58,128 bases of DNA from Pseudomonadota bacterium (lineage in GTDB: Bacteria; Myxococcota_A; UBA9042; GCA-2863065): the NCBI GenBank assembly GCA_947498315.1, contig CANMLD010000004.1, positions 1 to 58,128 on the forward strand. The letters are read 5' to 3'. The first letter of the stretch is position 1; each line of letters starts with the position of its first letter. Below the pieces are notes generated by a model. That model saw only the letters and a program-made list of their open reading frames with translations. It was not told the DNA's origin and made no database searches. This document shows positions 3,001-37,609 of the stretch, one piece after another. Made by a program: the position numbers and the translations under genes.

Positions 3001-6000
3001 AACACGGCCACGGCCAATGCCATCCCGCTCATTGTCGACACGGCGGCCCCGACCGTGGCCATCACGGGTCCCGCCGACGCTGCGCTCCTCATCGACGCCG
3101 ATGACGCCTCCGCGGTGGGCGGCTTCCAGGTGTCGCTCGCCTACGGGACGACTGGCGACGCAGCGACCTACAAGGTCTTCCTCGACACGAACTGCTCGGC
3201 GGGCTTCACGTTGTGCGAGGGCCCATCGCAGGTTCAAGCCGGCGCCATCCAGAACGCGGGCGGGGCCGAGGCGCCCGTACTGCTGACCCTCCCCATCCTG
3301 AAGACGCCCGACTTCGTTCGCATCACCGTTGAGGTCACGGACGCCGCTGGCAACAAGGCGACCGACTCTGTTGAGCTCACGGTCACACTCGTCGAGTGTA
3401 CCGTCGGCGTTGCGGGGATCCCCGTGACCGGCAACGTCGGGAACGCGCTCTGCGCTGTCGCAGGCACCGACTGCCCGTCAGTGGATCTCAACGTCGACGT
3501 GTCGCTCATCGGCGCCTGTGCCGGCGTGACGACGGTCTCACTCGTGATCGACGGTTCGGTCGTCGCGACGCAGCCGGTCGTCCTGTCGGGCGCGTCCTTC
3601 ACTCGCACGTTCACTCACGGCACGACGCCATCGGTCGAAGTCACCGGCGCCGGGCTCCAGACGGTCGCGAGTGGAGCGCTGGCAGTGACGGTCGATCTCC
3701 AAGACCCGATCCCGACGTTCAGCGCGACGACCGTTGGCGGTTTCGCCACCCCGGCCTCGGGCGCGACGGTGGTGTGGAACCAGCTCAACGATCTCGGCGG
3801 GGCTGCCGGTGTTCAGGTGAATCTGCGCCTCGACGTCACCGACGTGGGTGTGGGTGGGGGCGAGCTCGCCAGCTTGAAGATCGGCGCGACGTCCTTCACC
3901 GGCACCCCGACCTTCCCGATCGCCGTCAGCGGCACGACCTTTGGGACCGACGTGCTCTCGGTGACATTCCCGGACGGTGTGTCCCAAGTGGTGGTCCTCA
4001 CCGCTCAGGACGCCGTGGGCAACGCGGCGACGACGTCGTTCACCTACACATCGGACGTGGTGCCACCCGCGGCGCTCACCCTGGCGCTCTCCGACTTGAA
4101 CCCGCGTCGCCCTGCAGCCAAGCTCAGCTGGACGGCCGTCGCCGACAACGGCGCCACCGGCGCAGCCGCGTCGGGGGTCGACATCCGTTACGGTGTCGCG
4201 CCGATCACCGACGCCAACTTCGAGCTCGCTTGCCCTGCAGCCGAGCTCGTGCGCAGCGCCGCACTCCCGACCCCGGCAGCGCCCGGCACGGCCGAGAGCT
4301 ACGTCGTCACGGGGCCGGACTCCCGCGATCCGGCGAACCCGTGCAAGTTCCTGCCGCGTGTCGATGGCGGCACGTACTACTTCGCGGCCCGAGCCATCGA
4401 CGCCCTCGGCAACGTCGGGCCAATCGCGGCTGGCAGTGTGGCGAATACCGACTTGCTCAAGTTCAACGTCGCCAGGGCGGGCGTCGCGCGAGTCGATGGC
4501 GCTGCGCTGTGTACCGGTGCGGCGCCGACGTGCATCCTCGACTTCGACCGCCGCATCTCGCGCCTCGGCGACGTGAACAACGACGGCTTCGACGACTTCT
4601 CGGTCGGTGGCAACACCTCCTTTGGCTTCTGCATCCACTACGGCTCTGGCACGGTCGGCCCGGACATCCGCGTGCCGGCCAATCTGGCGGTGACGCCCGG
4701 ATTCGACGCCAACTGGCAGTGCCACCTCGCGCTCACGGGCGCCACGGACACGAACCGAGCGGGGCACTACGCTCAGAACGCGGGTGATCTCAACGGAGAT
4801 GGCCTTCAAGACATCGCAGTCCCTGCCTTCGTGGGGGCGTCGGTCGCCACCGGCGACCCGGAGATCCGGATCTACTTCGGCGTGAACGGCGGCCGGATCT
4901 CGACGGTGCCGGACGTCGTCATCAGGGGCTGGGCCAACGCGGAATCATCCTCGACGACGCGGTGGGGTGTTGGCGGCGACTTCAACGGCGATGGCCGCGG
5001 GGACATCGTCATCGGCTCCAAGGTAGGCAACGTCAGCGGTACCGCCGACGACAACAAGGTCTACGTCGTGCCGGGCAACGACACCTGGGCGAAGGTCTCG
5101 GGCGCGAGCCTCATCCTCGACATGACGAACGCAGCGACGCTGACGAACAACAACGTCCAGACGTGGCAGATGCCCGCGGTCCCGACCAACCCGGCCTTTG
5201 GAGCGCAGGTGGGCTTCGTCGGCAATGTTCTCAGCGACGTCGGCGCGACTCAGTACGACGACATCGTCGGCTTCTCCGCCGACTCGACCGCCCCGTCCGC
5301 GCAGACCAAAGCGGTCGTCATCAAAGGCCGCCCGACCCCCGCGGCGGCGAGCTTCACGCTCTCTTACGCGTCGGATGGTACCGGCGGTGACGATGCCAAT
5401 ACGGTCGTCCTGCGGCCAGACGCGCCCACGCAGAAAGACTTCGGTACGAACCCGAGCGTCCTCCGCCGTGACGTTACGGGCGACAACATCCCAGACGTCC
5501 TCATCAGCCACTCTCTTCCGACCAACCCCGGTCTGCGCGTCCTCTACGCCTTTGACGGTGCCAAGATTCGAAGCACGGCGGGCGGCACGTCGCTCCTCAT
5601 GGCGATGCCGCTCAGCGCCAATCAGCTCATCACGAGTCCCAAGATCGGCGACAGCATCTTCAAATCGCCAAACGGCGCTGGCTACGTGTGGGTCGGCAAC
5701 TTCGACTTCTTCGGCGACCTCGGCAACATCGTCGACGACCCGAACACCAACGTCGACGCCATCGCCATTGGCCACAAGAACCTCGATGACGCGGGCAAGG
5801 CCTACATTCGGCTGAACCACATCGACGCTGACCAGAGCTTCGCCTACGGCACCTTCCCGTGGTCGGACTTCAAGCTGACGGATCCCTTTGGCGGCACGGC
5901 GTTCGCCGAACGCGACATCCTGGGCGTTGGTGACCACAATGGTGACGGGTACGACGACTTCGCCGTCAGCACCGCGACAGGGTACGTGGTGCTCTTCTAC

Positions 6001-6003
6001 TGA
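1..6003 (+). CDS. Giant secreted/cell-surface protein, 5'-truncated by the window edge: tandem bacterial Ig-like domains followed by C-terminal FG-GAP (integrin-alpha-like) repeats
   Basis: Frame 1 is open from nt 1; the listed ORF 85..6003 starts at an internal TTG. A domain-end motif D.(A/L)GN recurs: VVDVAGNAG, VSDSAGNAA, CVDLAGNAS, VTDACGNTA, VTDAAGNKA, AQDAVGNAA, AIDALGNVG. The C-terminal ~480 aa carry Ca-binding FG-GAP loops GDVNNDGFDDF, GDLNGDGLQDI, GDFNGDGRGDI, VTGDNIPDV, GDHNGDGYDDF. Confidence 0.8.
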   Translation, partial: TVTATDDAGNSSTFEETFRVDLVPGPATLTFDTPVSGWVLASKDDADPATLSVFESTFTIGVSRGTIGSTVTVACRDLGTLGAHAPVGTASVTAADGPLSVDVAIPVGAQTLQECRVSDNAAKPAPVQFATFTITLPAPAFVLGTPVAAGLTRETTVSFSAATKNLNTLSGTLTLTGPSGVVYTQPVGPVVANALSGDFYLTVDGTAGGAPIADGVYSVSFFFVDALGNAACEQPGAVCSGSFRFDATAPTGAFTAPAAVLTPPGDADGNGAVPGYQSDVTVTVADGGFEAGTTVCLTVGANNVGCDTVADGATTVVFPSVTLQPGDNALVATVVDVAGNAGTDATSVVTLVSNAPQVAIVVPAQNTSTATDTVTLTVEVRDNQGVLATTGVDVTLFVNGVESPAVETDLGGGLYQVTVVLPTFGVNDLTARATINNGVEGFSAPRLVNYKQGAPSIAVTGPADGSVVNLTTPLCDVAPGDCLATVTCTGTDLDDGSASSLTVTCGSGAAATFTSTVAGGATSFSGVTLTNKSTCSLVCSATDSGTGQIATSPAASVRIDRTAPGIANYVKPASGTLIFVDDTSGDAGFQFIVQGRVSGVEAGQDVTVTATWATGSETRTVTLAAGTADGVNQFVTFGEMTLPQGAVTFTMTVSDSAGNAAAPKVQAVQIVSEQPLLRISTPTYIQPKACVTDNDCPGPGACYETGAGKKCALGWNASSNTSLLLRSVNIAPLSPNQFRVCSDNPAYDANEACTASGAGFNVVQTFDVTLPDSNANISSTIVDGVHTLVGEARLDEAGATWVSTVAASVVADQTRLVVVDRSVPQNAGTSLPDDTLVPLGCLNAAEGGGNYDITTTCDEEGVVRLLVNSVQVNSAAAVAGQAVTFADEPLAGGPLTVSTICVDLAGNASPASTVAISVDSVLPSLSFSKPSSSPILVGGDRDIVVSSDEVGGTVNLTDNGGTPVQALVSASQEATFDDATFGILSDGSHQLSASVTDACGNTATANAIPLIVDTAAPTVAITGPADAALLIDADDASAVGGFQVSLAYGTTGDAATYKVFLDTNCSAGFTLCEGPSQVQAGAIQNAGGAEAPVLLTLPILKTPDFVRITVEVTDAAGNKATDSVELTVTLVECTVGVAGIPVTGNVGNALCAVAGTDCPSVDLNVDVSLIGACAGVTTVSLVIDGSVVATQPVVLSGASFTRTFTHGTTPSVEVTGAGLQTVASGALAVTVDLQDPIPTFSATTVGGFATPASGATVVWNQLNDLGGAAGVQVNLRLDVTDVGVGGGELASLKIGATSFTGTPTFPIAVSGTTFGTDVLSVTFPDGVSQVVVLTAQDAVGNAATTSFTYTSDVVPPAALTLALSDLNPRRPAAKLSWTAVADNGATGAAASGVDIRYGVAPITDANFELACPAAELVRSAALPTPAAPGTAESYVVTGPDSRDPANPCKFLPRVDGGTYYFAARAIDALGNVGPIAAGSVANTDLLKFNVARAGVARVDGAALCTGAAPTCILDFDRRISRLGDVNNDGFDDFSVGGNTSFGFCIHYGSGTVGPDIRVPANLAVTPGFDANWQCHLALTGATDTNRAGHYAQNAGDLNGDGLQDIAVPAFVGASVATGDPEIRIYFGVNGGRISTVPDVVIRGWANAESSSTTRWGVGGDFNGDGRGDIVIGSKVGNVSGTADDNKVYVVPGNDTWAKVSGASLILDMTNAATLTNNNVQTWQMPAVPTNPAFGAQVGFVGNVLSDVGATQYDDIVGFSADSTAPSAQTKAVVIKGRPTPAAASFTLSYASDGTGGDDANTVVLRPDAPTQKDFGTNPSVLRRDVTGDNIPDVLISHSLPTNPGLRVLYAFDGAKIRSTAGGTSLLMAMPLSANQLITSPKIGDSIFKSPNGAGYVWVGNFDFFGDLGNIVDDPNTNVDAIAIGHKNLDDAGKAYIRLNHIDADQSFAYGTFPWSDFKLTDPFGGTAFAERDILGVGDHNGDGYDDFAVSTATGYVVLFY

Positions 6004-6135
6004 TCGCGAGTGGGGTCCCTTCTACAGGTTGTTGCCAAATCGACTTGATCCGATCTCGACGACCCGGCAACCGAGTATGTTACGGTGCCAGCGCCGCCCT
6101 AGCCGCGCACTTAGGCTTGCTTCAAGAGGTGTCTC

Positions 6136-6297
6136 GTGACCCAGTCCGCGTCTAGCCCGTCCGCAACATCTCCTGTGCCCCGACCGCGTCGCCCGTATCG
6201 GCGGCCCGTCTTGCGCTCCACCGAAGCCTTCGAGCGGATGGCGCTCCTCTCGTGTGGTGACGACGCTAGTCAGCCGGAAGAGTGCGCGGAGCTCTGA
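6136..6297 (+). CDS. Candidate small precursor peptide (53 aa) of the rSAM/SPASM cassette
   Basis: Absent from the supplied track (<60 aa). GTG 6136 is preceded by AAGAGG (6124..6129, 6-nt spacer). 53 codons run to TGA 6295..6297: VTQSASSPSATSPVPRPRRPYRRPVLRSTEAFERMALLSCGDDASQPEECAEL. It lies directly 5' of the kinase-like ORF and overlaps it by 16 nt. Codons mostly end in G/C. Confidence 0.4.
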   Translation: MTQSASSPSATSPVPRPRRPYRRPVLRSTEAFERMALLSCGDDASQPEECAEL

Positions 6298-7133
6298 ACC
6301 TCGAGGCGCCGGGCACCGTCCGCGTGCCGGTTGGCCCGATCTGCGTCGAGCTTCGAAGTGCGGACGACTCCGTCTTACGTTGGGCACGTGAGCTGGCTGC
6401 AGTCGCGTCGACGGCGTCGGCCCAAGGCACCCTCTTAAGCCTCCACGTCAGCGTCTCCGGGGAAGTACTCGATGGGCCGGTCGCGCCGACGTTGCGGACG
6501 ACCGGCGCCACGACGGAGCTCGCCTACCACGGGCTCCGCGCTATCGTGACGTCGACCGGCGCTCAGGCGACACTGTCCTTCGCGGGCGCGCAGGTCCTCG
6601 GCCTCGCCAACGTCGCGCGGGGGCAGCGGCGGCTAGCGAACCTCTTGCGCCTCGTCTCCGAGACGGTGTTGCGGCCAACGCCAATTGCGCTTCATGGTGC
6701 TGGGATCATTCATGAATCGAACGCTTACGCCTTCGTTGGACCACGCGGGGTCGGCAAGACGACGTTGGCGCGACGATTCGAGGCGTCCGCAAGGCTTGGC
6801 GATGACCACCTCTGGGCTTTACCGGACCGCGACGGTTACGCGCTTTGGCGCACGCCCTTTGCCGGCCGTGAAGGCACCGTCAGCCGCGCGGTGTCGTCGC
6901 CGCTCCGAGCTGTCGCGATCCTGACGCAGGGCAGGGTGACCTCGGCGCGAAGGCTGTCCGTCAGTGAGGCGCTCGCTCGCCTCCTCCCTGCGGTCGTGCT
7001 CCCGTGGGCTGAGGCTGCTTTCACCAAGTTGGCGCTCGAGCGAGTCGCGACCCTCGTAGAGTCCGTCCCTGTAATCGCCCTCGAGCTCGAACGTCTTGGG
7101 CCTGCCGTTGCCGCCGTGGAGAGCTGTCTATGA
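6282..7133 (+). CDS. HPr kinase/phosphorylase C-terminal-domain-like P-loop protein (HprK-related kinase)
   Basis: HGAGIIHESNAYAFVGPRGVGKTTLARRF P-loop context followed by LGDDHLW. The stop overlaps the rSAM start (ATGA 7130..7133). Start uncertain: GTG 6282 or GTG 6324. Confidence 0.7.
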   Translation: MRGALNLEAPGTVRVPVGPICVELRSADDSVLRWARELAAVASTASAQGTLLSLHVSVSGEVLDGPVAPTLRTTGATTELAYHGLRAIVTSTGAQATLSFAGAQVLGLANVARGQRRLANLLRLVSETVLRPTPIALHGAGIIHESNAYAFVGPRGVGKTTLARRFEASARLGDDHLWALPDRDGYALWRTPFAGREGTVSRAVSSPLRAVAILTQGRVTSARRLSVSEALARLLPAVVLPWAEAAFTKLALERVATLVESVPVIALELERLGPAVAAVESCL

Positions 7134-8461
7134 TCCTCGATTCACCGAACGACGCGGCACCTCCCGACGCCACGCCTTCGGCAGCGTCCTCTCCCGACGC
7201 CACGTCGACAGCAGCGTCCTCTCCCGACGTCACGTCGACAGCAGCGCCACTCCCCTCGGGGCTCGACGGTCGGCTCAAGGCGCTGTACCAGCGTCAGAGG
7301 CGGCTCATGAACCTCCATCTCGACCTGCTCTACGCCTGTGATTTGGACTGCCACCACTGCTACCTCGACGAGAAGAAGCGCCCTCAAGCGAGCACGGCGA
7401 CCATCATCGACATCCTCGAGCAAGCTGCCGAGATGGGCGCGCTTCAGGTCCTCTTCTCCGGCGGAGAGATCTTCCTTCGGAAGGATCTCTTCATCATCCT
7501 CGAAGCGGCTCGACGGCTGCGCTTCCACATCCGCCTCAAGACGCATGGCGGCAACATCACCGGCCACGACGCTCGTCGCCTTCGTGAGCTCGGGGTCGCG
7601 CAAGTCGACTTCAGCGTCTACGCGCTCGACCCTGCCGTGCACGACGGCTTCACCCAGAAGCGCGGCTCGCTCGAGCGCACCTTGCGAGGCATCGACCTGC
7701 TCGTGGCCGAGGGCCTCCGGGTCGAGGTCAAGTGTTCGGTCACGACTCAAAACCTCGCCCACTACCGGGAGCTGAATGAGCACTTCGGTAAGCGTGGGAT
7801 TCCGTGCACACTGAGCTCCAAGATCCGCGGCACGAACAGTATCACCACGAACACGTACGACTTGAACGCGGACTTCGAGGACAAGGTCGAGGTCGAGCTC
7901 TACCGGATCGCTCAGGCCGGTGGCCCGCGTACCCCGGGGCCCGCACCAGCTCCGACCGAGTCGCACTTCTGCAGCGCGGGCCGGACCATGATCTATGTCT
8001 CGCCGGATCTCGAGGTCTACCCGTGCGTGGCGTATCCGCGACCCGTCGGCGATCTCAGCGTACAGAGCCTCGCTGAGGTCTGGAGAGGCGACGCGACGCT
8101 CGCGGACGTCCGGGCGGCCACTCGTGCCGACACTCATCTTCCGGCCACCTCCGCGCCGCCCATGGTCGGCATCTGCGGGACGTGCCCTGCCCGTAGCCAC
8201 TGCAGCTACTGCCCCGGCTCGGCCTACATCGAGAGCGCTGGGGACGCGCTCATCCCGCCCGCTGTCGTGTGTGCCGCGGCCTTCGCCAAGCTCGAGGCGG
8301 TTACCCGTTGGGAGCAGGGGGAGCGCCCAGCGCCCGAACATGTGGCGGCGGTCAAGACCAAGCGAGGGCTCTTTCCCATCGCGGTGAACCTCGGCGTCCT
8401 TAGGCCGGCCGGCCCCTCCGCACACGGCGCCGAACACGCCGGAGGTTGTTCCTGCGGCTAA
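7130..8461 (+). CDS. Radical SAM enzyme with C-terminal SPASM-type auxiliary-cluster domain (peptide-maturase-like)
   Basis: CDLDCHHCY is the CxxxCxxC motif; SGGEIFLRKD is a GGE SAM-binding motif. The C-terminal Cys-rich block is FCSAGRTMIYVSPDLEVYPC ... CGTCPARSHCSYCPGSAY ... VVCAA. Start ambiguous: ATG 7130 (coupled to the upstream stop) or in-frame ATG 7307 (AGAGG at 7296..7300). Confidence 0.85.
   Translation: MILDSPNDAAPPDATPSAASSPDATSTAASSPDVTSTAAPLPSGLDGRLKALYQRQRRLMNLHLDLLYACDLDCHHCYLDEKKRPQASTATIIDILEQAAEMGALQVLFSGGEIFLRKDLFIILEAARRLRFHIRLKTHGGNITGHDARRLRELGVAQVDFSVYALDPAVHDGFTQKRGSLERTLRGIDLLVAEGLRVEVKCSVTTQNLAHYRELNEHFGKRGIPCTLSSKIRGTNSITTNTYDLNADFEDKVEVELYRIAQAGGPRTPGPAPAPTESHFCSAGRTMIYVSPDLEVYPCVAYPRPVGDLSVQSLAEVWRGDATLADVRAATRADTHLPATSAPPMVGICGTCPARSHCSYCPGSAYIESAGDALIPPAVVCAAAFAKLEAVTRWEQGERPAPEHVAAVKTKRGLFPIAVNLGVLRPAGPSAHGAEHAGGCSCG
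7161..7250. repeat. 3 x 30-bp direct tandem repeat (ctcccgacgccacg[cc/tc]...gcagcgtcct)
   Basis: Units at 7161..7190, 7191..7220 and 7221..7250 differ by a few bases. In the rSAM frame they encode PDATPSAASS / PDATSTAASS / PDVTSTAAPL. Confidence 0.9.
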
Positions 8462-8928
8462 ACGGACCTGCGGCCGGCAAGTCGGACACCGACCCGGTAG
8501 TCCCAGTCGCGTTGCTTCGCGACGCGCTCTCTCGCTTCGGTTGCGTCCACGTACGTGCCCTCGGCGAGAGCATGTCGCCACTCATCCCAAGCGGATCTCT
8601 CTGCCTCGTCGTCGCTGTCTCTGTCACTCAGCTCGAGCGCTTCGACATCGCCGCCGTGGCGCACGGCGAGACCCTGGTCATCCATCGGGTCCTGGCGACG
8701 GGGCCACGTGGCGTCCTGCTCGCTGGCGACAACGCACACAAGCCCGACCCATGGACCCCGTCAGGATCGCTACTCGGCCGGGTTGACATGGTCGTGCTCC
8801 CTGCCGGTGGGCAGCGCAGGCTCGATGGCCCTCTCTGGCGCCTTCTGGCCAGGCCCCTTCGGCTGCTTGGCCGCTTGCGTCGACTACGAGATCGACGACC
8901 CGGACCCGAACGGCGCCCTCGAGCCTGA
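8446..8928 (+). CDS. S24/S26-family serine peptidase, SipW/Sec11-like (Ser-His type), no N-terminal membrane anchor
   Basis: GESMSPLIPSGSLCLV (catalytic Ser box), FDIAAVAHGETLVIHRVL (His where LexA/SPase I have Lys), LLAGDNAHKPDPW and LLGRVDMVV. Overlaps the rSAM stop by 16 nt. The TTG start at 8446 is uncertain. Confidence 0.7.
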   Translation: MFLRLNGPAAGKSDTDPVVPVALLRDALSRFGCVHVRALGESMSPLIPSGSLCLVVAVSVTQLERFDIAAVAHGETLVIHRVLATGPRGVLLAGDNAHKPDPWTPSGSLLGRVDMVVLPAGGQRRLDGPLWRLLARPLRLLGRLRRLRDRRPGPERRPRA

Positions 8929-9031
8929 ATTTCGCCCGACGACCAAAGTCGAAGGGCTCGTAATCTTTGACCCGAGCCTGCGCTGGCTCTAGGCTCGCCG
9001 CGCGGCGTTGTCCGTTCGGAGCAGAGAACCC

Positions 9032-9934
9032 ATGCGGTGCATCTTGAAAATGGGGCTGACGCCGTCCCTCGCGGCGCTCGTGCTGTCCGCCTGTGGCACG
9101 AGTCAGACCGTGCGCATCGCCGCTCAGCTCGACGACGTTCAACGCGAGCTCCTCGAGGTCAAGAAGCAGCTGGCGACTCAGACCGTCATGAACCAGAACC
9201 TCGAGACCGATCTGTTCACCTTCAAGGACCGCCTCGAAACCTTGGAGCGGAACCGAAACCGTCGTGCCAAGACGGGAGATGAGCTCAGCACCGTTCGGAT
9301 TCGCCCGGAGTCCGGGCCCGAAGCCCGCTTCGATGCACGTGGAGACGCGCCGACACCCGTCGCCCGCCGCGACGATCCGGGCCGCGAGCCTGACTGCGCG
9401 CTCGGCGACGTGCTTACGGAAGACGGCCAGCGCCTGCCGGGGTGTGGCAAGGCTGACGGCCGCTCCGCACGAGACGACCGCGGCGCGCCCGGTGGGTCGC
9501 GTGTCGAACCCGAACCGCAGCCGGCGGAACGCGCGGTTCGGCCGAGCCCGAAGCGCGCCGACGTCGAGGCCAAGACGGCGTACGAGACGGCGATGTCCGA
9601 CTACCGAGCCGGCCGCTTCTATCAGGCCACCGAGGCCTTCCTCGACTTCGTTGACCGATTCCCGCGACACGAATACGCCGACAACGCGCTCTATTGGGCC
9701 GGCGAGTGCTACTACACGCGTGCGCTCTGGAACAAGGCGCTCGACCTCTTCGCGCGCGTCGTAGAGTCGTATCCGATGGAGAACAAGACCGCCGACGCCA
9801 TGGTCAAGATAGGCCTCTGTCAGATGAACCTCGGCAACACTCAGGCGGCCCGCGACGCGTTCGAGTCGGTCATTGGCATGTACCCGGACAGTCCGGTCGC
9901 GAACCTCGCCAAGCAGAAGCTCGAAGGACTCTGA
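9032..9934 (+). CDS. cpoB: Tol-Pal associated TPR lipoprotein CpoB/YbgF
   Basis: Lipobox LVLSAC; N-terminal coiled coil (QLDDVQRELLEVKKQLATQ); C-terminal TPR block YRAGRFYQATEAFLDFVDRFPRHEYADNALYWAGECYY...MNLGNTQAARDAFESVIGMYPDSPVANLAKQKL. ATG 9032 or 9050 preferred over TTG 9008. Confidence 0.75.
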   Translation: MRCILKMGLTPSLAALVLSACGTSQTVRIAAQLDDVQRELLEVKKQLATQTVMNQNLETDLFTFKDRLETLERNRNRRAKTGDELSTVRIRPESGPEARFDARGDAPTPVARRDDPGREPDCALGDVLTEDGQRLPGCGKADGRSARDDRGAPGGSRVEPEPQPAERAVRPSPKRADVEAKTAYETAMSDYRAGRFYQATEAFLDFVDRFPRHEYADNALYWAGECYYTRALWNKALDLFARVVESYPMENKTADAMVKIGLCQMNLGNTQAARDAFESVIGMYPDSPVANLAKQKLEGL

Positions 9935-9937
9935 GCG

Positions 9938-10945
9938 ATGATCACTTCCTGTTTGTTCATGCTCACTGCGGCCCTAACGACACAGGCCGACCGTTATGAG
10001 CCCTCGATCGTGACCGACACGGCGAGCTCCTACCGGCCCGCTGGGACTTACGTGGTGCTGGAGAACGACACGTTGTGGACTCTCTCCGAGATCCACTTTG
10101 GCAACCCCTTCTACTGGCCCGTCCTTTGGAGCTACAACCCGCAGGTCACGAACCCGCACTGGATCTACCCGGGGGACCTCCTCTATCTGCAGCCGCGCAT
10201 GAAGGAGAAGACCGAAGTCATCACCTTCGCCAAGAGCCGCTACAGCGACGCGCCGCGTCTCGAAGAGGTCCTCGCGCGCTTCAAGGGCTTCATCTCGGTC
10301 CGTGACTACAAGGAGTCTGGCCGGCTCGCGTCATCGCGTGAGGAGAAAGAGATGCTGGGCGAGTACGACGAGGCCTACCTCGAGTTCTCGATCCCAAAGA
10401 AGATCCTGCCGGGCGAAGAGTACACGATCTATCGCGTCGACCGGCCGGTCACCGACCCCGACACCGGCGAGACCCTTGGTTACATGATAAGGCACCTCGG
10501 GATCTCGCGCGTCCTGACCGTCGACAAGACCAAGCCATACGTAAAGGGCCTGATCCTGAAGAGCTGGCAGGAGATGCAGCGCGGCGATCTCCTAACCAAG
10601 CGCCTCTGGACTAGCGAGACCGTTCAGCCGGTCCAGAACCAGATTGGGACTTGGGCCCGTATCATGGATACCTTCCAGGATTCGACCAACATGGGCGAAC
10701 ACGACTACATCATCATCGACCAGGGCTTCAAGCAGAAGGTACGGCGTGGAAACCGCCTCGTGATCCGCCAGCGTGGCGACACCCTGCGTCCATCGTCTGC
10801 CGACGACCTCAAGAAGTATCCCTGGGAGACCATCGGCGAAGTCATGGTCCTCGAGCCCTTCGAGAACACGTCGATGTGCATCGTCCTCCGCTCCACCAAA
10901 GAGCTGTTGAAGGGCGAAGACCTGCAGATGATTCAAGGGTATTGA
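9938..10945 (+). CDS. LysM peptidoglycan-binding domain protein
   Basis: Signal-like N-terminus MITSCLFMLTAALTTQA. LysM motif YVVLENDTLWTLSEIHFGNPFYWPVLWSYNPQVTNPHWIYPGDLLYL. Confidence 0.75.
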   Translation: MITSCLFMLTAALTTQADRYEPSIVTDTASSYRPAGTYVVLENDTLWTLSEIHFGNPFYWPVLWSYNPQVTNPHWIYPGDLLYLQPRMKEKTEVITFAKSRYSDAPRLEEVLARFKGFISVRDYKESGRLASSREEKEMLGEYDEAYLEFSIPKKILPGEEYTIYRVDRPVTDPDTGETLGYMIRHLGISRVLTVDKTKPYVKGLILKSWQEMQRGDLLTKRLWTSETVQPVQNQIGTWARIMDTFQDSTNMGEHDYIIIDQGFKQKVRRGNRLVIRQRGDTLRPSSADDLKKYPWETIGEVMVLEPFENTSMCIVLRSTKELLKGEDLQMIQGY

Positions 10946-11014
10946 GGTCGACGAGTCAGGTCGGGGCTGTGAACGTTGTCTTCGGCGCTCGTGACCTGTA
11001 GGAGTCCGACTGTC

Positions 11015-12613
11015 ATGGCCAACTACTCGCCCACGAAGCTCCTCTCCCGCGGTTCCGAGTCGCTGTGGCTCTTTGCGTTTGCCATAGTGACGCTCAGCGC
11101 GCTCTGCGGCTGTCGTAAGAGCGCGGTCGCTGCATCGTCCGACCCGCCGAATCCAGACCAGGTGGCGCGGCGAAGCGCGGCGCCGCCCTCTGCAGCAGCC
11201 GTCACTCTCCTCAGCGAGTCGCCGCCGGGCAATCCTCCGGGCAAGGTGGCTCCAGATGCGCCTCGGGTTCAGTCGACGCACCAGTTCTATGGCGTCTACG
11301 TCACTGGCCAGAAGGCAGGCTACGCTGAAGAGTGGGTGCGCCCTTTGCCCGACGGCTCCGTCGAGCATGAGACGCAGGTCGTACTCACGATGCAGCGCCT
11401 CGGCCAGACCTTGAAGTTGAGGCTCTCGGATAAGGCCATCTACGGCCCGGATGGCGCCATGTCCCGCTTCGAGACGGTCGAAGACCTCGGGCCGAACGCG
11501 AGGACGGTCCGCTCCGGGCGTGTTGAAGGAGACCAGCTCGTAGTGACGGTCACGACCGGCGGAAAGTCGACCGAACAACGGCGGGCGGCGCCCAAAGAGC
11601 GTGCAGAAGATACGCTCCCGGCGCTGATGGTGCCTCGCCTGCGAGCGGCCGGCGCTGAGGGCACCACCTTCTGGCAGTTCGATAGGTCCACCCTCGACGA
11701 CATCGAGATCAAGAGCCGCATCGTGCGTGAGCGCGAGGTGCGGGTCTCGGGCGTCCCGACGGTGGTCCTCGAGGTGGATGGCCGGGACGAAAGGCGCGGC
11801 CTCACTCTCGGCAGCCGGCTCACGGCCTCGGGCCTCGCACTCGAGATGACTGTCGGCCCTGGCTTCAAGCTGGTCCTCGAGGAGGAGTCCGTCGCCAAGA
11901 ACCCGTCTTTGCAAGTCCCTGATCTCTATCGCCTGGCCGTCGTCCCGGCCGACAAGCCGCTCGGCCGCCCCGACGACGTGAAGCGCCTTCGACTTGCCCT
12001 CGACGGGCTCCCGGAAGCCGCAGGACCATCCGATGGCCGGCAGACCCGGTCCGAGGGGAGCGTACTCGAGGTGCGACGCGTCGACTGCAAGGACGTCCCC
12101 AAGACGGCCATCACCGCGGCGGAACGGAGCAAGTATCTCGAAGCTACGGCCTTCATCGACCACGCGGCGCCGTCCGTTCACGCAAGGCTGGCTAGTGTCG
12201 CTACCGGACCCGGGCGCGCCGAGCGGCTCAGTCGACTCGTGACCGGGGCGCTCCGCTACACCCTCGCGACCGCACCGATGACGGCGAGCGCCATCTTCGA
12301 AGGGGGCGCTGGTGACTGCACCGAATACGCGAGGGCGCTCGTGGCCCTTTTGCGCGCTGACGGCATCCCCGCCCGGGAAGTCTCCGGGATGGCGTGGTCG
12401 GGTGACGGCGAACCAGGTTTCGCCTTTCACGCCTGGGCAGAGGCCTACGTGGTCGCCGCCGGTGAATCGGACGGTCGATGGTGTGCGCTCGACCCAACCT
12501 GGGATCAGGTCACTCCCGACGCCACCCACATCGCGCTCTCCCGCGACGACCCCACCGCCATCATCGGCCTACTCGGTGGCGTCAAGGCCCGCATCATCGA
12601 CGTCGAGCGTTGA
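11015..12613 (+). CDS. Transglutaminase-like (Cys-His-Asp core) lipoprotein
   Basis: Signal/lipobox LSALCGC. Core GAGDCTEYARALVALLRADGIPAREVSGMAW ... FAFHAWAEAYV ... WCALDPTW. ATG 11015 with GGAG upstream. Confidence 0.75.
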   Translation: MANYSPTKLLSRGSESLWLFAFAIVTLSALCGCRKSAVAASSDPPNPDQVARRSAAPPSAAAVTLLSESPPGNPPGKVAPDAPRVQSTHQFYGVYVTGQKAGYAEEWVRPLPDGSVEHETQVVLTMQRLGQTLKLRLSDKAIYGPDGAMSRFETVEDLGPNARTVRSGRVEGDQLVVTVTTGGKSTEQRRAAPKERAEDTLPALMVPRLRAAGAEGTTFWQFDRSTLDDIEIKSRIVREREVRVSGVPTVVLEVDGRDERRGLTLGSRLTASGLALEMTVGPGFKLVLEEESVAKNPSLQVPDLYRLAVVPADKPLGRPDDVKRLRLALDGLPEAAGPSDGRQTRSEGSVLEVRRVDCKDVPKTAITAAERSKYLEATAFIDHAAPSVHARLASVATGPGRAERLSRLVTGALRYTLATAPMTASAIFEGGAGDCTEYARALVALLRADGIPAREVSGMAWSGDGEPGFAFHAWAEAYVVAAGESDGRWCALDPTWDQVTPDATHIALSRDDPTAIIGLLGGVKARIIDVER

Positions 12614-12679
12614 TGCCGTCGGCACTGCCTCGCTCAACCCGAACGTGACCGCCGACCCCCAGCCCCGTATGATGCGCCA

Positions 12680-13996
12680 ATGTCCCTCCTTCGCTACGTG
12701 ATAGACCTGCCAGCCCAAGCGCTTGCCGTGGTTGTCGGCGTGGCGGCGCTCGGCTGTGGCGCTGCAGAGACCAGCGTCTGCGTCGACTGCGATGGTGTCC
12801 CCGCTCAGACCGTGGTGGGGCGGCTCACCGGTGACGTCGCGCTCGCCATCGGTCCGCTCGACACCATCTGGTTCGCTGGCTACGACGACGACTTCGGCGC
12901 GTTGGTGGTCGGTCGCCTCGCAATGGACCTCATCGGCGAGACCGAGCTCATTGACCCCGTCCGCGTCGATGACGGAGAGCCCGTGACGCGTCGCGTCGGC
13001 CAAGGGGCGGCGCTCGCTGTCGACAGCACCGGGGAGCCCCGCGTCGCGTACCTCGTTGCCGAAGCCGGGCAAGCGTTCCTGGCGCGTCGGCGCGGCGCGT
13101 GGACCGTCGAGCCGCTCGATGGCCCTGATTGGCGCCGCCCGTCGGGCGGTTCGGATGAGGTAGCAGCAGAGAGTGACGAACTCACGCCCTTCGTCACCCA
13201 GGTCGCGCTCGCCCTCGATGCAGGTGGCGGCGAGCACGTGGCGACCCTCGACTCCACGACGGGCTCGCTTCGCATCTTCAGCAGCACTGGGGCGTGTCGG
13301 GACGCCGGGGCAGAGGTGACGGCCGCTGGTACGGCGCTGTTGGACATTGAACCACGTGTCGTCGACTCGTCCGTCCTCGAGGCGGCTGGCCTCGGCCCGA
13401 GCCGCATCGGTGGGGTGCCCTCCATCACCGTCGACGTCACTGGCGCTATCGCCGTCAGCTTCTACCTCGAGTCTACCGGCGATCTCGCGCTACTGACCTG
13501 CGTCGGCGAGTCGCTCGCCATTCGGACCATCGCGGGGAGCGATGGCGAACGTGATCTCGGTGATGTCGGCTACTGGTCGTCCGTCGCGGTCGATCCGCGC
13601 ACAGGGAAGCTCGCCATCGCCTTCTTCGACCGAACCCGTGGTCAGCTCGCTTACTCCACCAGCGTCAAGGGCGAGCCCACTGTCGTGGTCATCGACGACG
13701 GCTCTGGCGAGCTCGGCTCATTTTCACGCTACGTCGGCCAGATGCCGTCACTGGCATTCGCACCACTCGGATCGGCGTATCCGGGTCGCCCGACCGTCGC
13801 CTACCTCGATGCGTCGGAACGGGCCGTGAGGCTGGCAGTTCGCGACGACTTCGGACGATGGAGCCACGAGGTCATCGCGGAGGCCGAGCCGCTTCAGGGC
13901 CGGCTCGCCGCCGCATCAGGCGCCACCGGGACCTGGGTCGCGTTCTCACGGTTCGGTCGGCCGCATGTCGAGAAAGGCAGCAGCGATGCCGACTGA
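12680..13996 (+). CDS. Hypothetical secreted/lipoprotein with repeated beta-strand-rich segments
   Basis: ATG start; N-terminus LAVVVGVAALGCGAAE. Recurrent motifs PRVAYLVAE, KLAIAFFDRTRGQLAYSTS, PTVAYLDASERAVRLAV suggest a propeller-like repeat. No family recognised. Confidence 0.55.
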   Translation: MSLLRYVIDLPAQALAVVVGVAALGCGAAETSVCVDCDGVPAQTVVGRLTGDVALAIGPLDTIWFAGYDDDFGALVVGRLAMDLIGETELIDPVRVDDGEPVTRRVGQGAALAVDSTGEPRVAYLVAEAGQAFLARRRGAWTVEPLDGPDWRRPSGGSDEVAAESDELTPFVTQVALALDAGGGEHVATLDSTTGSLRIFSSTGACRDAGAEVTAAGTALLDIEPRVVDSSVLEAAGLGPSRIGGVPSITVDVTGAIAVSFYLESTGDLALLTCVGESLAIRTIAGSDGERDLGDVGYWSSVAVDPRTGKLAIAFFDRTRGQLAYSTSVKGEPTVVVIDDGSGELGSFSRYVGQMPSLAFAPLGSAYPGRPTVAYLDASERAVRLAVRDDFGRWSHEVIAEAEPLQGRLAAASGATGTWVAFSRFGRPHVEKGSSDAD

Positions 13997-15689
13997 CGTG
14001 GTCAGGACTCGTTCGCGCGGCCTTTGGCACTACTGTCTCGTCTTGTTCGCGTCTTCGGCGTGCTCCGAGCTCGTGACCGACGAGCTGTCCCCACAAGACC
14101 CGGCCCCGACTCGCAATTACTCGGGGTCAGCCCTTGCCTACCTCACCCCGTCTGGGCTCGCCAAGTATGAGGGTATGGCGAGTCACTTTGCGTCCAGCAC
14201 ATTTCCGGACGACGTACCGCTCTCGATGCCTGTCAGTGTCGTCCTCAGCGACACGCCTGGGCCACCGCGCACCATTGGTGGCGGAGATGGCGTCTGGAAC
14301 GTCCGTGTTCAGACGTTGACTCTAGACCTCAACCCCACGTCCGGTGCCAAGCCCGATGAGGCTCTGGCGGCTCGTGTCGAGGTGTCCCTCTACGGAGACC
14401 CGCTGCCCGTGACCGGCGAGCTCCCGGACTGTCGCGTAGTGCCCAGCGCGCGAGCCCTCGCGCTCCGGATCCCGCTCCAAGTGGGTCGGGACGTGCTCGG
14501 CCGTATTCAGGTCTCGGTGGCGTCGTCAGGCGCTTCGGTCATCGAGCCGCCAGGACAGCTCCCGGCGCTCGAGCTCTCGCTGGTCGACTGTGCGAGCCTC
14601 ACGCCGGCTGCCGCGCTCGATGCCCTGATGGGGCCGTTCCTCGATACACTCCTCGAGGACAAGGCGTTTACCTTGCCCCTGACGCGTACGGTCGCGACGC
14701 TCGTGGGTGCTCGTTTGCCCTCCCGGGTTACTGCCGTGTTCCCCGAAGGGGGTGAGTTGAGCGTCACCCTTCAGAGCGACATCAACAGCGCCGACCCACC
14801 TGTTCTGGTCTCGGGGCCCGCGCTGATCGCCCTCCCGTTCTCCATCGGGGTCACTGCGGTGGCGTCGGCCTGCTCCGGCCTCGCGGCGACGCTCCCTGCC
14901 CCCATCACGAGCCCAGCGCCGGAAGGGCTGACCTGGACAGGGGCCGACCTCGTCATGACCGTTCGACAGGATGCCTTGGACGCCATCATCGTCGCTGCAC
15001 TGTCCGCCGGCGGTCTTTGTGGGGTGGCACCGACGCCAATCGGCACGCTCGGAGAGGTGCTTGCGCTCGCTGGGGGCGCGGCCGTCGAGCCGACGGTAGC
15101 CGCGCTGCCCAAGAGCTCGCCGGTCGTCGCACGCCTCTCGTGGCTCTCAGCGCCCACGATGAAGATGACGGAGTCCGGCGAAGCCCTCTCTATCAGACTC
15201 GCGTCGAGCTCCGCCCTCGTTGAGACCTTCGTGCGTCTCGGCACCATCGACCATCTCCTCACTCGCCACAGCGGTTCGCTCTCGGTGAGCGGGCTCGTCC
15301 CCGAGCTGCGCAGTGATGGCGTCATTGCGCTCAGTGCGCCCGCGGACGCTCAGACGGTCTTCGACGGCCCAGTCCCCCTCGCGGCGAGAGTGGTGGCACG
15401 GCTTGCCGGTCGTTTGGCGCTCTTCCCCGTACCCGATAGGCTCCCGTTCCCTCTCGCAACGGCCTCCTTCTCGATGGCGGGACAACACCTCGTCATCCAC
15501 GCGACGTTCGTGGCGACCGGCCAAGCGACCGGCCCCGAGAGTGGTGCGTTGATCTCCGCGACGGGTGCCTCAGGGTGCACTGCCTCGGGGCATACGGTCG
15601 GCACGCGGTCTCAGCCGCCTTTGTTTTGGCTCATCGGGTTCACCGTGTTCGCCCTATCCCGGCTCGTTCGGCGGCGGCGCGCTCTCTGA
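13986..15689 (+). CDS. Secreted hypothetical protein with MYXO-CTERM-like C-terminal sorting signal
   Basis: C-terminus ...ATGASGCTASGHTVGTRSQPPLFWLIGFTVFALSRLVRRRRAL: a Gly-Cys motif, then a hydrophobic helix, then an Arg cluster at the extreme C-terminus. N-terminal hydrophobic segment WHYCLVLFASSAC. ATG 13986 overlaps the upstream stop. Confidence 0.6.
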   Translation: MPTDVVRTRSRGLWHYCLVLFASSACSELVTDELSPQDPAPTRNYSGSALAYLTPSGLAKYEGMASHFASSTFPDDVPLSMPVSVVLSDTPGPPRTIGGGDGVWNVRVQTLTLDLNPTSGAKPDEALAARVEVSLYGDPLPVTGELPDCRVVPSARALALRIPLQVGRDVLGRIQVSVASSGASVIEPPGQLPALELSLVDCASLTPAAALDALMGPFLDTLLEDKAFTLPLTRTVATLVGARLPSRVTAVFPEGGELSVTLQSDINSADPPVLVSGPALIALPFSIGVTAVASACSGLAATLPAPITSPAPEGLTWTGADLVMTVRQDALDAIIVAALSAGGLCGVAPTPIGTLGEVLALAGGAAVEPTVAALPKSSPVVARLSWLSAPTMKMTESGEALSIRLASSSALVETFVRLGTIDHLLTRHSGSLSVSGLVPELRSDGVIALSAPADAQTVFDGPVPLAARVVARLAGRLALFPVPDRLPFPLATASFSMAGQHLVIHATFVATGQATGPESGALISATGASGCTASGHTVGTRSQPPLFWLIGFTVFALSRLVRRRRAL

Positions 15690-35732: not shown

Positions 35733-35795
35733 CGGGCACGCCGAACCCAGCGCCCCCGCGAGTCTAGCAAGATCGGGGCCCCATTTCACTCAACT

Positions 35796-37573: not shown

Positions 37574-37609
37574 CGTGATCTCCCAGTCATCGTGGGCTGC
37601 TCTCGAGGC

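Follow-up and report, generated by a model that had tools for sequence, protein, structure and literature searches.

A rare RiPP-type cassette with ScmC-like, radical SAM/SPASM and peptidase genes beside a giant surface-protein gene in Myxococcota

Results

Organization of the locus

The window analysed here comprises positions 1 to 58,128 of contig CANMLD010000004.1 (assembly GCA_947498315.1; GTDB Myxococcota_A), which starts inside a giant gene and so lacks the 5′ end of that gene. Four overlapping plus-strand ORFs at 6136–8928 encode a small peptide, a ScmC-type protein, a radical SAM (rSAM)/SPASM enzyme and an S24-like peptidase (Table 1). The first-pass annotation had described co-directional ORFs with overlaps of 16 nt, ATGA and 16 nt; these are present as annotated, except that the first overlap is uncertain because the start of the ScmC-like gene is uncertain. 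In homologues this gene begins about 14 codons further on or has a 4-nt overlap with the peptide stop, and the true start may be a GTG about 14 codons downstream of the annotated one. The cassette is indeed flanked by an adhesin gene (Big_13/FG-GAP) and by cpoB, the latter above its NCBIfam cut-off.

Table 1 Features of the cassette and its flanks.
Feature	Position	Strand	Evidence
Giant Big_13/FG-GAP gene, 3′ part, 1972 codons	85..6003	+	Pfam Big_13 3.2e-13, FG-GAP 7.6e-11
Shine-Dalgarno-like AAGAGG	6124..6129	+	6 nt 5′ of precursor GTG start; read from sequence
Precursor peptide gene, 53 aa, GTG start, MTQSASSPSATSPVPRPRRPYRRPVLRSTEAFERMALLSCGDDASQPEECAEL	6136..6297	+	12 distinct homologues
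Leader recognition/junction region Y21-R34, YRRPVLRSTEAFER	6196..6237	+	six-sequence alignment A5
Putative 19-residue core, MALLSCGDDASQPEECAEL	6238..6294	+	invariant C40, C50; acidic tail
ScmC-type P-loop phosphotransferase-like protein, 283 aa	6282..7133	+	Pfam PF27840 ScmC, precomputed
Walker A G153-T161 of ScmC-type protein	6738-6764	+	GPRGVGKTT
Radical SAM/SPASM enzyme, 443 aa	7130..8461	+	PF04055 1.8e-19, PF13186 7.6e-8
CxxxCxxC of rSAM, C70/C74/C77	7337-7360	+	read from sequence
Seven-Cys SPASM region of rSAM	7970-8272	+	invariant in six closest family members
Soluble signal-peptidase-I-like S24/S26, archaeal/SipW-type Ser/His peptidase, 160 aa	8446..8928	+	TIGR02228, PF00717
Peptidase Ser/His residues	S42 nt 8569-8571, H80 nt 8683-8685	+	invariant residues
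YbgF/CpoB gene	9008-9934	+	TIGR02795 102.9 bits vs NCBIfam cut-off 90.1
LysM-like protein gene	9938-10945	+	follows YbgF/CpoB gene

The cassette belongs to a larger conserved block

Every related locus in which the region is visible has the order PqqD/RRE, giant Big_13/FG-GAP lipoprotein, precursor, ScmC, rSAM, S24, CpoB and LysM-like. A neighbourhood comparison, proposed at first pass as a check, found the four cassette genes syntenic in L001, L002, L003/L048, L035-37, L038, L042, L044-47 and L050, down to about 27–35% ScmC-like protein identity. They are not the self-contained unit originally described, as the conserved block in relatives also includes the giant adhesin gene and PqqD. In L035/L036 and L042, too, the S24 gene is followed by the YbgF/CpoB and LysM-like genes; though syntenic in such distant relatives, these are probably not pathway members. 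The ORFs that we scanned in the 58-kb contig included neither an exporter nor an NTP transferase, and there is no immunity gene in the housekeeping chromosomal context of the cassette.

In four independent lineages the giant gene is directly preceded by a PqqD gene, whose product matches best, among NCBIfam models, the lasso (top), HPr-rel-A and GeoRSP PqqD chaperones. Giant homologues of 2355–3085 aa are found at the equivalent position in L001, L003/L048, L035-37, L042, L047, L038 and L050, with lipobox-like signal peptides and a C-terminal end ...GYxVLFY, and stand between the PqqD and precursor genes wherever the region is visible. The RRE appears to be missing from the window because the contig begins within the giant gene, and the earlier reading of a system without PqqD/RRE was thus a contig-edge artefact.

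The precursor peptide is conserved at the amino-acid level

The small cysteine-containing ORF called at first pass has twelve distinct homologues, each directly 5′ of a ScmC-like gene. Their final 27–35 residues are near-invariant although the codons differ: the window and L039 differ by 18 synonymous and 2 non-synonymous codons, and L002 and L003 by 22 and 2. The window and L003 precursors share an identical C-terminal 27 aa, whereas their ScmC proteins are 44% identical. The stretch CAAGAGGTGTCTCGTGAC around the Shine-Dalgarno-like site is identical in L001. These sequence comparisons identify the small ORF as a genuine gene under strong amino-acid-level purifying selection, and show the precursor to be better conserved than its enzymes.

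The leader carries a YxxPx[L/V] motif of the RRE-binding type followed by FE[R/K], by analogy a putative cleavage junction. Invariant positions in alignment A5 (six sequences) are Y21, P24, R27-S28-T29 and A31-F32-E33-R34 in the leader and A36-L37-L38-S39-C40, C50, E52 and L53 in the core. The L042, L045 and L047 precursors have H, Y, K and T variants in the leader/junction region, Q in place of L38 and a different tail. All 12 variants retain the C-x9-C spacing while the nine intervening residues vary. The core is rich in Cys and Asp/Glu, contains neither a CxPxR-type sulfatase motif nor a C-terminal GVY-type motif, and shows no conservation of thioether acceptor residues between subtypes.

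The precursor profile also matches a peptide of a homologous Verrucomicrobiota cassette (hhalign E 1.9e-5), which comprises NTP_transf_5, ScmC, PqqD, rSAM, precursor, beta-propeller and S24 genes. There the precursor gene is downstream of the rSAM gene, ruling out a purely positional upstream ORF. Its product has Ala where S39 stands and a core without acidic acceptor residues, and the cassette encloses a secreted PQQ_2/BamB-like beta-propeller protein. In Kiritimatiellae, a PqqD-rSAM-ScmC trio adjoins a large DUF11/LTD surface protein.

Three putative maturation enzymes

Of the cassette proteins, the rSAM enzyme is the best conserved (58–86% identity among family members). Both the CxxxCxxC motif and the SPASM cysteine cluster noted earlier are present, with C281, C299, C349, C352, C358, C361 and C381 invariant in the six closest members and Pfam matches to both domains. 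There is no RRE fused to it, and its scores stay well short of every NCBIfam cut-off (best AhbD, 95 vs 500 bits), lying far under those of AhbD/NirJ, PqqE and MftC, families of the cofactor type against which the first-pass annotation had wanted it checked. Its closest PDB entry by sequence is SkfB (3.4e-14). Foldseek searches with an AF2 model, disordered at residues 1–43, matched SkfB, SuiB, PqqE, CteB and anSME about equally, with the epimerase EpeE also among the neighbours. Judged from the model, the structural neighbours are peptide maturases; because they match about equally, the reaction type is not readable from sequence.

The second protein had been called an HPr-kinase-C-like kinase. 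Its P-loop (GPRGVGKTT), H138 and D174-D175 are invariant and its fold supports the PEPCK/HprK relationship, but its Pfam family is PF27840 ScmC, with no match to Hpr_kinase_C. TIGR04249 scored 14.9 bits against a cut-off of 125, and TIGR04249/04352/04355 are all far under their cut-offs. The family profile matches the PEPCK active-site segment in the PDB (2.7e-5), and the AF2 model (pLDDT 89.9) retrieved PEPCK (8e-7) and HprK/P (1e-4) in Foldseek. We conclude that the predicted likeness to HprK/PEPCK is at the fold and active-site level only.

In the peptidase family, G40, S42, M43 (GxSM), H80, R81, G94 and D95 are invariant, in agreement with the reported GESMSP...IHRV...GDN signature; a LexA Lys aligns with H80, weakly (E 0.49). 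The window peptidase matched TIGR02228 sigpep_I_arch (6.9e-8; 32.5 vs cut-off 51.85) and PF00717 (6.7e-5; 23.0 vs 23.3), and the L035 orthologue also matches SipW. These S24 and signal-peptidase matches are real though below curated cut-offs. As also noted earlier, there is no membrane anchor: the window protein has no transmembrane-quality segment (maximum KD19 1.65, inside the catalytic core), and no lineage has an anchored form. By analogy, this S24-like protein is a putative leader peptidase.

Relationship to known systems

The combination of enzymes, previously considered unassignable to any RiPP class, resembles linear polyphosphorylated peptide (LPP) systems of Bacillota, with an rSAM enzyme added. 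LPPs, exemplified by lppA-K-B-S-D-N of Paenibacillus alginolyticus, are defined by an RRE, an HprK-like kinase, a SipW-like leader peptidase and a YxxP...FET leader (Popov et al., Nat Commun 2026, PMC13381572). Their leaders follow the consensus YxxPxVLxHQxIxFET and are cut after FET, and they provide experimental precedent for RRE-dependent SipW-like leader cleavage (LppS) and HprK-like Ser phosphorylation (PMC13381572). Both systems have a discrete PqqD-type RRE, a leader YxxPx[V/L] followed ~6–8 residues later by an aromatic-Glu-X junction (FET in LPP, FE[R/K] in the Myxococcota family, YET in the Verrucomicrobiota relative), an HprK-superfamily P-loop enzyme and an anchorless archaeal/SipW-type Ser/His(/Asp) peptidase of putative leader-cleaving function here; LppK, LppS and LppB were compared by description. 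Both lie at cell-surface loci, with capsule genes in LPP and the giant adhesin and CpoB/LysM here. In contrast, LPP systems lack an rSAM enzyme and belong to a different phylum, whereas the cassette has a ScmC protein with no recognisable Hpr_kinase_C family, the Myxococcota block has no NTP transferase or MsbA-like exporter, and its core is short with an invariant C-x9-C and no Ser at core position 3 (LPP cores are variable and 35–200 aa).

The PqqD-rSAM-ScmC combination is itself flagged by Pfam ScmC and by the TIGRFAM families SynChlorMet (TIGR04248-04251: ScmC, ScmD, ScmE, ScmF) and GeoRSP. The SynChlorMet, GeoRSP and HPr-rel-A systems share a PqqD chaperone, rSAM/SPASM and HprK-related/ScmC P-loop protein; we found no experimental work on them, only TIGRFAM/NCBIfam definitions. 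Pfam ScmC includes the window protein, and TIGR04249 is the NCBIfam model that its relatives match best, but scores are far under cut-offs (ScmC 14.9 vs 125, ScmE/F 53–63 vs 400, GeoRSP rSAM 71 vs 400). The cassette differs in having one rSAM rather than two, and further contains a giant lipoprotein gene, an identified precursor family and a SipW-like peptidase.

Sactipeptide and ranthipeptide maturases (SkfB, CteB, AlbA, PapB, StsB) share rSAM, a full SPASM domain and a Cys-containing substrate core, and include the nearest solved structures by sequence (SkfB) and fold. The cassette enzyme differs in lacking an N-terminal fused RRE, in its kinase-like and signal-peptidase-like partners, in a core of only two Cys and in scores under the maturase models (StsB 83 vs 625, SkfB 55 vs 300, AlbA 50 vs 850). 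Phosphorylated lasso peptides of the paeninodin type share the YxxP-type leader, discrete PqqD/B1-type RRE and HprK-superfamily enzyme, but the conserved block has no asparagine-synthetase-like lasso cyclase or B2 cysteine peptidase, and the core no macrolactam acceptor pattern. The reported absence of a lasso cyclase and exporter holds for the conserved block and the scanned contig ORFs, respectively.

Discussion

The cassette represents a real, rare and uncharacterised RiPP-type pathway, as judged from sequence, with chemistry that we infer. Comparative evidence supports well a scheme in which a ribosomal peptide would be modified by an rSAM/SPASM and a kinase-like enzyme and freed by a soluble ER/archaeal-type Ser/His peptidase. 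We consider it probable that this locus represents the downstream portion of a conserved RiPP-type block that modifies and releases a small peptide by the following mechanism. A discrete PqqD-family RRE, encoded upstream of the giant gene in relatives and here off the contig, would bind the precursor at YxxPx[L/V]. The rSAM/SPASM enzyme, without an RRE of its own, would modify the C-terminal core, most likely converting the C-x9-C cysteines to sacti- or ranthipeptide-type thioether cross-links. The ScmC-type enzyme, with a complete PEPCK/HprK-like His...GxGKTT...DD site, probably phosphorylates the peptide using ATP; by analogy with LppK and paeninodin kinases, the best candidate site is the Ser beside the first Cys (S39), invariant in the Myxococcota family. 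The anchorless peptidase would cut the leader after FE[R/K], RRE-dependently, as LppS does after FET, yielding an acidic, cross-linked, possibly phosphorylated peptide of ~19 residues. For the phosphorylated and/or cross-linked, proteolytically released peptide first envisaged, synteny, selection and the low rSAM scores against cofactor-family models speak in favour, and its chemistry stays predicted.

Several observations count against this proposal. The S39 equivalent is Ala in the Verrucomicrobiota precursor, YxxP and FE[R/K] are spaced two residues closer than the corresponding LPP motifs, and thioether acceptors are unconserved between subtypes. Neither exporter nor NTP transferase was found among the scanned contig ORFs, and the RRE gene is off-window. 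The ScmC family is remote from HprK, and the ScmC-type protein could therefore act on another substrate or as a scaffold.

Alternatively, the modified peptide might serve the giant beta-propeller lipoprotein as a dedicated partner rather than being a free natural product, in the form of a small cross-linked subunit, peptide-derived cofactor or maturation factor, although we regard this as unlikely. Precedents exist: QhpC/QhpD of quinohaemoprotein amine dehydrogenase involve Cys-Asp/Glu thioethers and a beta-propeller subunit, and PqqA/D/E supply beta-propeller quinoproteins. The giant FG-GAP/Big_13 gene separates the RRE and precursor genes in every lineage with a visible region, the Verrucomicrobiota locus likewise includes a beta-propeller protein and the Kiritimatiellae trio adjoins a large surface protein, the Cys- and Asp/Glu-rich core is extraordinarily constrained, which would be unusual for antibiotics, and the cassette sits in a housekeeping setting with no exporter or immunity gene. 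However, this evidence is one of adjacency in three cassette types examined, the peptide has no route across the inner membrane, PqqE, MftC and QhpD-type models are under cut-offs, and the Verrucomicrobiota core lacks acidic acceptors. Less likely still is an LPP-like linear phosphorylated peptide on which the rSAM performs non-cross-linking tailoring (epimerisation, Cys-to-formylglycine oxidation or MftC-like C-terminal oxidative decarboxylation). What the cassette shares with LPP (RRE, leader motif, kinase-like enzyme and SipW-like peptidase) fits it, as do anSME and EpeE among the structural neighbours, beside cross-linkers, and partial MftC and PqqE matches. Yet two invariant Cys at fixed spacing with a full seven-Cys SPASM domain typically mark a thioether-forming maturase, and the core contains neither the sulfatase-type nor the GVY-type motif.

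We find it very improbable that the enzymes mature the giant lipoprotein, with the rSAM modifying this protein, the S24 protein as its dedicated SipW-like signal peptidase and the small ORF regulatory or incidental. The peptidase does match archaeal-type signal peptidase I and SipW best, TasA and TapA, both biofilm proteins, are known SipW substrates (cited in PMC13381572), and the linkage between the cassette and the giant gene is strict. However, the peptidase is unanchored in every lineage, so exported substrates would be out of reach, and the lipobox-type signal peptides of the giant proteins are signal peptidase II substrates. The small ORF, moreover, is under amino-acid-level purifying selection, encodes an RRE-type leader and has a homologue that, in another phylum, follows the rSAM gene.

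Returning to the RiPP-type pathway, its linkage to giant-lipoprotein and envelope genes, its housekeeping region and the lack of an exporter suggest a physiological role connected with the cell surface rather than that of a classical secreted antibiotic.

The conserved block

The four open reading frames that the first-pass annotation placed between an adhesin gene and cpoB are all present on the forward strand (see table). Their upstream neighbour is the 3′ part of a giant gene encoding a Big_13/FG-GAP protein, and the downstream neighbour encodes YbgF/CpoB with a score above the cut-off. The overlaps of 16 nt, ATGA and 16 nt are also there, but the first hinges on the start chosen for the second gene, which encodes the ScmC-like protein: close homologues of this protein start about 14 codons downstream or have only a 4-nt overlap with the peptide stop codon. 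Promoter, terminator and Rfam scans over positions 5800–9200 were uninformative.

The first-pass reading depended on synteny in related genomes, and the same order is kept across loci. In relatives, a PqqD gene is followed by genes for a giant lipoprotein, the precursor, the ScmC-like protein, a radical SAM (rSAM)/SPASM enzyme, an S24-like peptidase, YbgF/CpoB and a LysM-like protein. We found this block in loci L001, L003/L048, L035–L037, L042 and L050, and fragments of it in L002, L038 and L044–L047. In L001, L003/L048, L035–L037 and L050, the PqqD gene is the one directly 5′ of the giant gene. Its products (89–97 aa) match Pfam PqqD, and their best NCBIfam matches, all weak, are to lasso, HPr-rel-A and GeoRSP PqqD chaperones. 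The giant proteins (2355–3085 aa) have lipobox-type signal peptides and share a conserved C terminus, ...GYxVLFY. Because the window is a whole contig that begins inside the giant gene, a gene for such a leader-binding protein (RRE) is not visible in the window; the reported lack of a recognisable PqqD/RRE is thus an artefact of the contig edge. Nor is the unit self-contained, as the conserved block is larger, running from PqqD through the LysM-like gene with the giant gene included. The gene 5′ of PqqD varies by lineage, which indicates that the block starts at PqqD. One candidate member of the system, the PqqD-coupled gene for a ClpX-like AAA+ protein in L035, was rejected, since a DeoC-like gene takes its place in L048 and L050.

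Elsewhere in the window, a gene for a transglutaminase-core protein is followed by two open reading frames (438 and 574 aa) without a Pfam or NCBIfam match, and a complete bacillithiol biosynthesis operon is carried on this apparent Myxococcota contig.

Coordinates of features in the window and in related loci
Feature	Location	Strand	Details
Precursor ORF	6136–6297	+	53 aa; GTG start, AAGAGG six bases 5′
ScmC-like ORF	6282–7133	+	283 aa
rSAM/SPASM ORF	7130–8461	+	443 aa
Tandem repeat in rSAM gene	7161–7254		
C-terminal tail of rSAM	8432–8458		
S24-like ORF	8446–8928	+	160 aa
Transglutaminase-core gene and two following ORFs	10976–15689		Transglutaminase-core gene at 10976–12613
691-aa protein	33714–35789	−	MopE-type putative Cu-binding motifs; Dictyostelium CTDC-type Cys-rich repeats
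Exopolysaccharide/O-antigen-type cluster	35796–42944	−	NAD-dependent epimerase/dehydratase; Wzy_C-like 848-aa protein; fused GT4 + Bac_transf sugar transferase; polysaccharide deacetylase with DUF3473
Bacillithiol biosynthesis operon, complete	47528–51245		bshC 360 vs 266, bshB1 225 vs 183, bshA 461 vs 274 bits (score vs NCBIfam cut-off, exceeded in each case)
Verrucomicrobiota cassette	L051 7040–14752 (also L052, L053)		NTP_transf_5, ScmC, PqqD, rSAM/SPASM, 59-aa peptide, secreted DNRLRE/PQQ_2 (BamB-like) beta-propeller, 161-aa lipoprotein-like, S24
Kiritimatiellae locus	L004 7909–10450		PqqD, rSAM, ScmC-like; adjoins divergent 1107-aa DUF11/LTD surface protein
PqqD-coupled gene	L035 466–1847		ClpX-like AAA+ ATPase without N-terminal zinc finger; 4-nt overlap
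PqqD-coupled gene	L048 9087–10270; L050 2–1094		DeoC/LacD-type aldolase; 4-nt overlap in L048

The precursor peptide

We recovered 12 distinct homologues of the small peptide, each encoded directly 5′ of a ScmC-like gene, so that the small upstream open reading frame is conserved as the first-pass reading needed it to be. The N-terminal 20–30 residues vary among homologues, and the remainder follows the consensus [R/K][R/K]PY[R/N]xPx[L/V][R/H]STxA[F/Y]E[R/K][L/M]AL[L/Q]SC-x9-C-x-EL. In the window, the predicted end of the leader reads ...PYRRPVLRSTEAFER, and MALLSC... follows at the predicted junction. Pairwise comparison of the last 35 codons gave 18 synonymous and 2 non-synonymous differences between the window and L039, 15 and 2 between the window and L003, and 22 and 2 between L002 and L003. 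Window and L003 do not differ in the last 27 residues of the peptide, whereas the ScmC-like proteins of these loci are only 44% identical; constraint is therefore tighter on the peptide than on the enzymes. We conclude that the small open reading frame is a real gene under strong selection; on synteny and the codon evidence, we rejected both a regulatory upstream open reading frame and chance adjacency. A metagenome scan with the precursor alignment returned three loci only, and one of these repeats L003.

Predicted activities of the three enzymes

The third protein is the rSAM/SPASM enzyme originally described (Pfam Radical_SAM, 1.8e-19; SPASM, 7.6e-8). It is 58–86% identical within the family, with CxxxCxxC and seven SPASM cysteines kept. 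About 27 clusters have at least 44% identity to the window enzyme, and hundreds more from Myxococcota, Acidobacteriota, Verrucomicrobiota and Methylomirabilota have 35–40%. The enzyme falls outside the cofactor (PqqE/MftC/AhbD/NirJ) and sulfatase-maturase groups, in either of which the first-pass interpretation would have failed: every equivalog cut-off is missed and no NCBIfam cut-off is approached (score/cut-off: AhbD 95/500, NirJ2 92/500, PqqE 70/381, MftC 63/265, StsB 83/625), and the AhbD and NirJ matches cover the N-terminal rSAM core only. Among solved structures, the closest are those of the peptide maturases SkfB, SuiB, PqqE and CteB, plus anSME, and these structural neighbours do not discriminate the reaction type. 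A fused RRE would not fit into the protein. In the structure model, residues 1–43 are disordered. The sequence for this disordered N terminus includes a 30-nt tandem repeat, kept in frame (3.2 copies, 89% matches), that encodes a Pro/Ser/Thr/Ala-rich extension absent from homologues. The opposite end carries an EHAGGCSCG tail conserved in the window, L001 and L003; it is missing from L035, L042 and L046, and we rejected it as a feature of the system.

The second protein had been called an HPr-kinase-C-like kinase. Its fold and its His/P-loop/Asp-Asp site are indeed HprK/PEPCK-like, but it has no Hpr_kinase_C match and falls short of the HprK-related A and B models. Precomputed Pfam assignments place it and its relatives in PF27840 ('ScmC'). 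A search of 1.84 billion cluster representatives with the ScmC profile found 4261 relatives at E<=1e-3, of which only 8 reached E<=1e-30. Across 22 ScmC relatives, H138, G158-K159-T160-T161, D174-D175, P192 and G195 are invariant, and R196 and E197 nearly so. The H...GxGKTT...GDD segment of the family profile aligned to the active site of ATP-dependent PEP carboxykinase (2.7e-5), and the AlphaFold2 model (pLDDT 89.9) matched PEPCK (E 8e-7) and HprK/P (E 1e-4). From these results, we assign the ScmC-like protein as a predicted phosphotransferase of the PEPCK/HprK superfamily that has an intact active site and lies outside the HprK family proper. A contig scan with the ScmC alignment, which relied on the P-loop pattern alone, returned 30 irrelevant P-loop loci (L005–L034), and genuine relatives numbered just two, L003 and L004.

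The S24/signal-peptidase call for the fourth protein draws support from Peptidase_S24 (23.0 versus 23.3 bits) and TIGR02228 (6.9e-8), but both scores are just under the curated cut-offs. Relatives match TIGR02228 at 3.7e-9 (L035) and at 54.9 bits, above the cut-off of 51.85 (L051), and the L035 protein matches the SipW model at 2.8e-4. The Ser/His signature recognized earlier is invariant as GxSM (S42), H80-R81 and G94-D95. When the S24 profile was compared with the PDB, the general-base Lys of LexA, the sole match and a weak one (E 0.49), aligned to H80. As first reported, there is no membrane anchor: the protein is without a transmembrane segment in any lineage.

Related cassettes in other phyla

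A Verrucomicrobiae rSAM, P0226, sits in a related cassette (L051–L053), the S24 protein of which is soluble, signal-peptidase-I-like and above the TIGR02228 cut-off. The Verrucomicrobiota peptide (...KYVKPRCVSEPIYETLALACGKLPGQGGFCNAAPRRS) aligned with the Myxococcota precursor profile (hhalign E 1.9e-5), with Y, P, S, [F/Y]E, LAL, CG and the second Cys in register. We conclude that this cassette is a second architecture of the same system, closer to that of the linear polyphosphorylated peptides (LPPs) of Bacillota. At the Kiritimatiellae locus, L004, the rSAM had no SPASM match at the threshold used and there was no S24 gene nearby.

Comparison with known pathways

The statement that the cassette could be assigned to no described RiPP class has been overtaken by the 2026 description of LPPs (Popov et al., Nat Commun, PMC13381572). 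LPP precursors carry YxxPxVLxHQxIxFETxxS, the core Ser3 is polyphosphorylated by LppK, and LppS cleaves after FET only when the leader is presented by LppB (PMC13381572). The authors report no earlier description of LppS-type peptidases in RiPP pathways and do not mention radical SAM enzymes (PMC13381572). Our precursor carries YxxPx[L/V] and FE[R/K], with a spacing shorter by 2 residues than in LPP and with neither HQ nor a +3 Ser; the candidate Verrucomicrobiota junction, ...IYET/LALACG..., follows the LPP pattern more fully, and that relative also has NTP_transf_5. Compared with LppS by description, the S24-like protein shows the archaeal/SipW-type leader-peptidase feature (invariant S42, H80 and D95). 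Unlike LPP loci, neither the PqqD-to-LysM block of L035, L036, L042 and L048 nor the scanned window ORFs include an NTP transferase or an MsbA-like exporter. The cassette departs from the LPP class in lacking the NTP transferase, an exporter and a Ser at +3, and in having an rSAM.

The ScmC-like protein belongs to the broader Pfam ScmC family, but SynChlorMet (TIGR04248–04251) has two rSAMs (ScmE and ScmF) where the cassette has one; the match to TIGR04249 (ScmC) is weak (14.9 bits versus a cut-off of 125), ScmE and ScmF score 52.9 and 62.7 versus 400, and the PqqD proteins of relatives have no ScmD match. An rSAM domain, a SPASM domain with seven Cys and a core with two recall sacti/ranthipeptides, with the StsB, SkfB and AlbA models below cut-off. 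A lasso cyclase had been reported absent, and at no locus did the conserved block include an asparagine-synthetase-like cyclase or a B2 cysteine peptidase. By analogy, the cassette would work like an LPP pathway with an added sacti/ranthipeptide-type step. Literature searches for SynChlorMet/ScmC, or for HPr kinase with radical SAM, RiPP and PqqD, found nothing relevant, and neither kinases nor S24 peptidases come up in the rSAM-RiPP compendium, RRE-Finder or the structure-based RRE paper.

Proposed pathway and role

In the pathway that we propose, the PqqD-type RRE would bind the precursor leader, C40 and C50 would form one or more thioethers, and the peptide would undergo ATP-dependent phosphorylation, for which S39 is the best candidate, although the outgroup lacks this Ser. 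Following the same logic as the LPP leader and junction, RRE-dependent leader removal would occur after FE[R/K] (FER in the window), releasing the 19-residue core MALLSCGDDASQPEECAEL. The first-pass interpretation was right in its core, a RiPP-type pathway, and wrong about the missing RRE and self-containment. We consider it probable that the pathway is functional, of RiPP type and has the roles assigned here, and hold the specific chemistry with less confidence than the pathway as a whole. The system itself is real, rare and uncharacterised.

Stronger conservation of the precursor than of the enzymes, a housekeeping region, the lack of an exporter and the linkage to the giant gene suggest a physiological role in the cell envelope over antibiosis. 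A more specific reading, the main rival to our proposal or an extension of it, would make the cross-linked and/or phosphorylated product a dedicated partner of the giant beta-propeller surface lipoprotein, acting as a covalently rigidified small subunit, a peptide-derived cofactor or an assembly factor. QhpC in amine dehydrogenase, and PQQ, are comparisons for a peptide that serves a protein. Support comes from the position of the giant gene, which lies between the genes for the RRE and the precursor, from the large secreted repeat proteins found in both of the other cassettes examined, and from the housekeeping surroundings without an exporter. We regard such a partnership as rather unlikely. 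In this reading, the block would be a new 'RiPP-for-a-protein' kind of system, serving a multi-thousand-residue adhesin across Myxococcota and, in variant form, in other phyla. The cassette spans only about 2.8 kb, to which the PqqD gene adds 0.3 kb, so a direct test by heterologous expression is feasible.

We found no biochemical study of ScmC/SynChlorMet-type proteins in the literature. If confirmed, the pathway would be the first to join radical-SAM/SPASM chemistry to RRE, HprK-like kinase and SipW-like peptidase machinery, and would carry that recently discovered machinery beyond Bacillota, into Myxococcota, Verrucomicrobiota and probably further phyla. A first functional handle on the widespread Pfam ScmC/TIGRFAM SynChlorMet-type proteins would also be gained.
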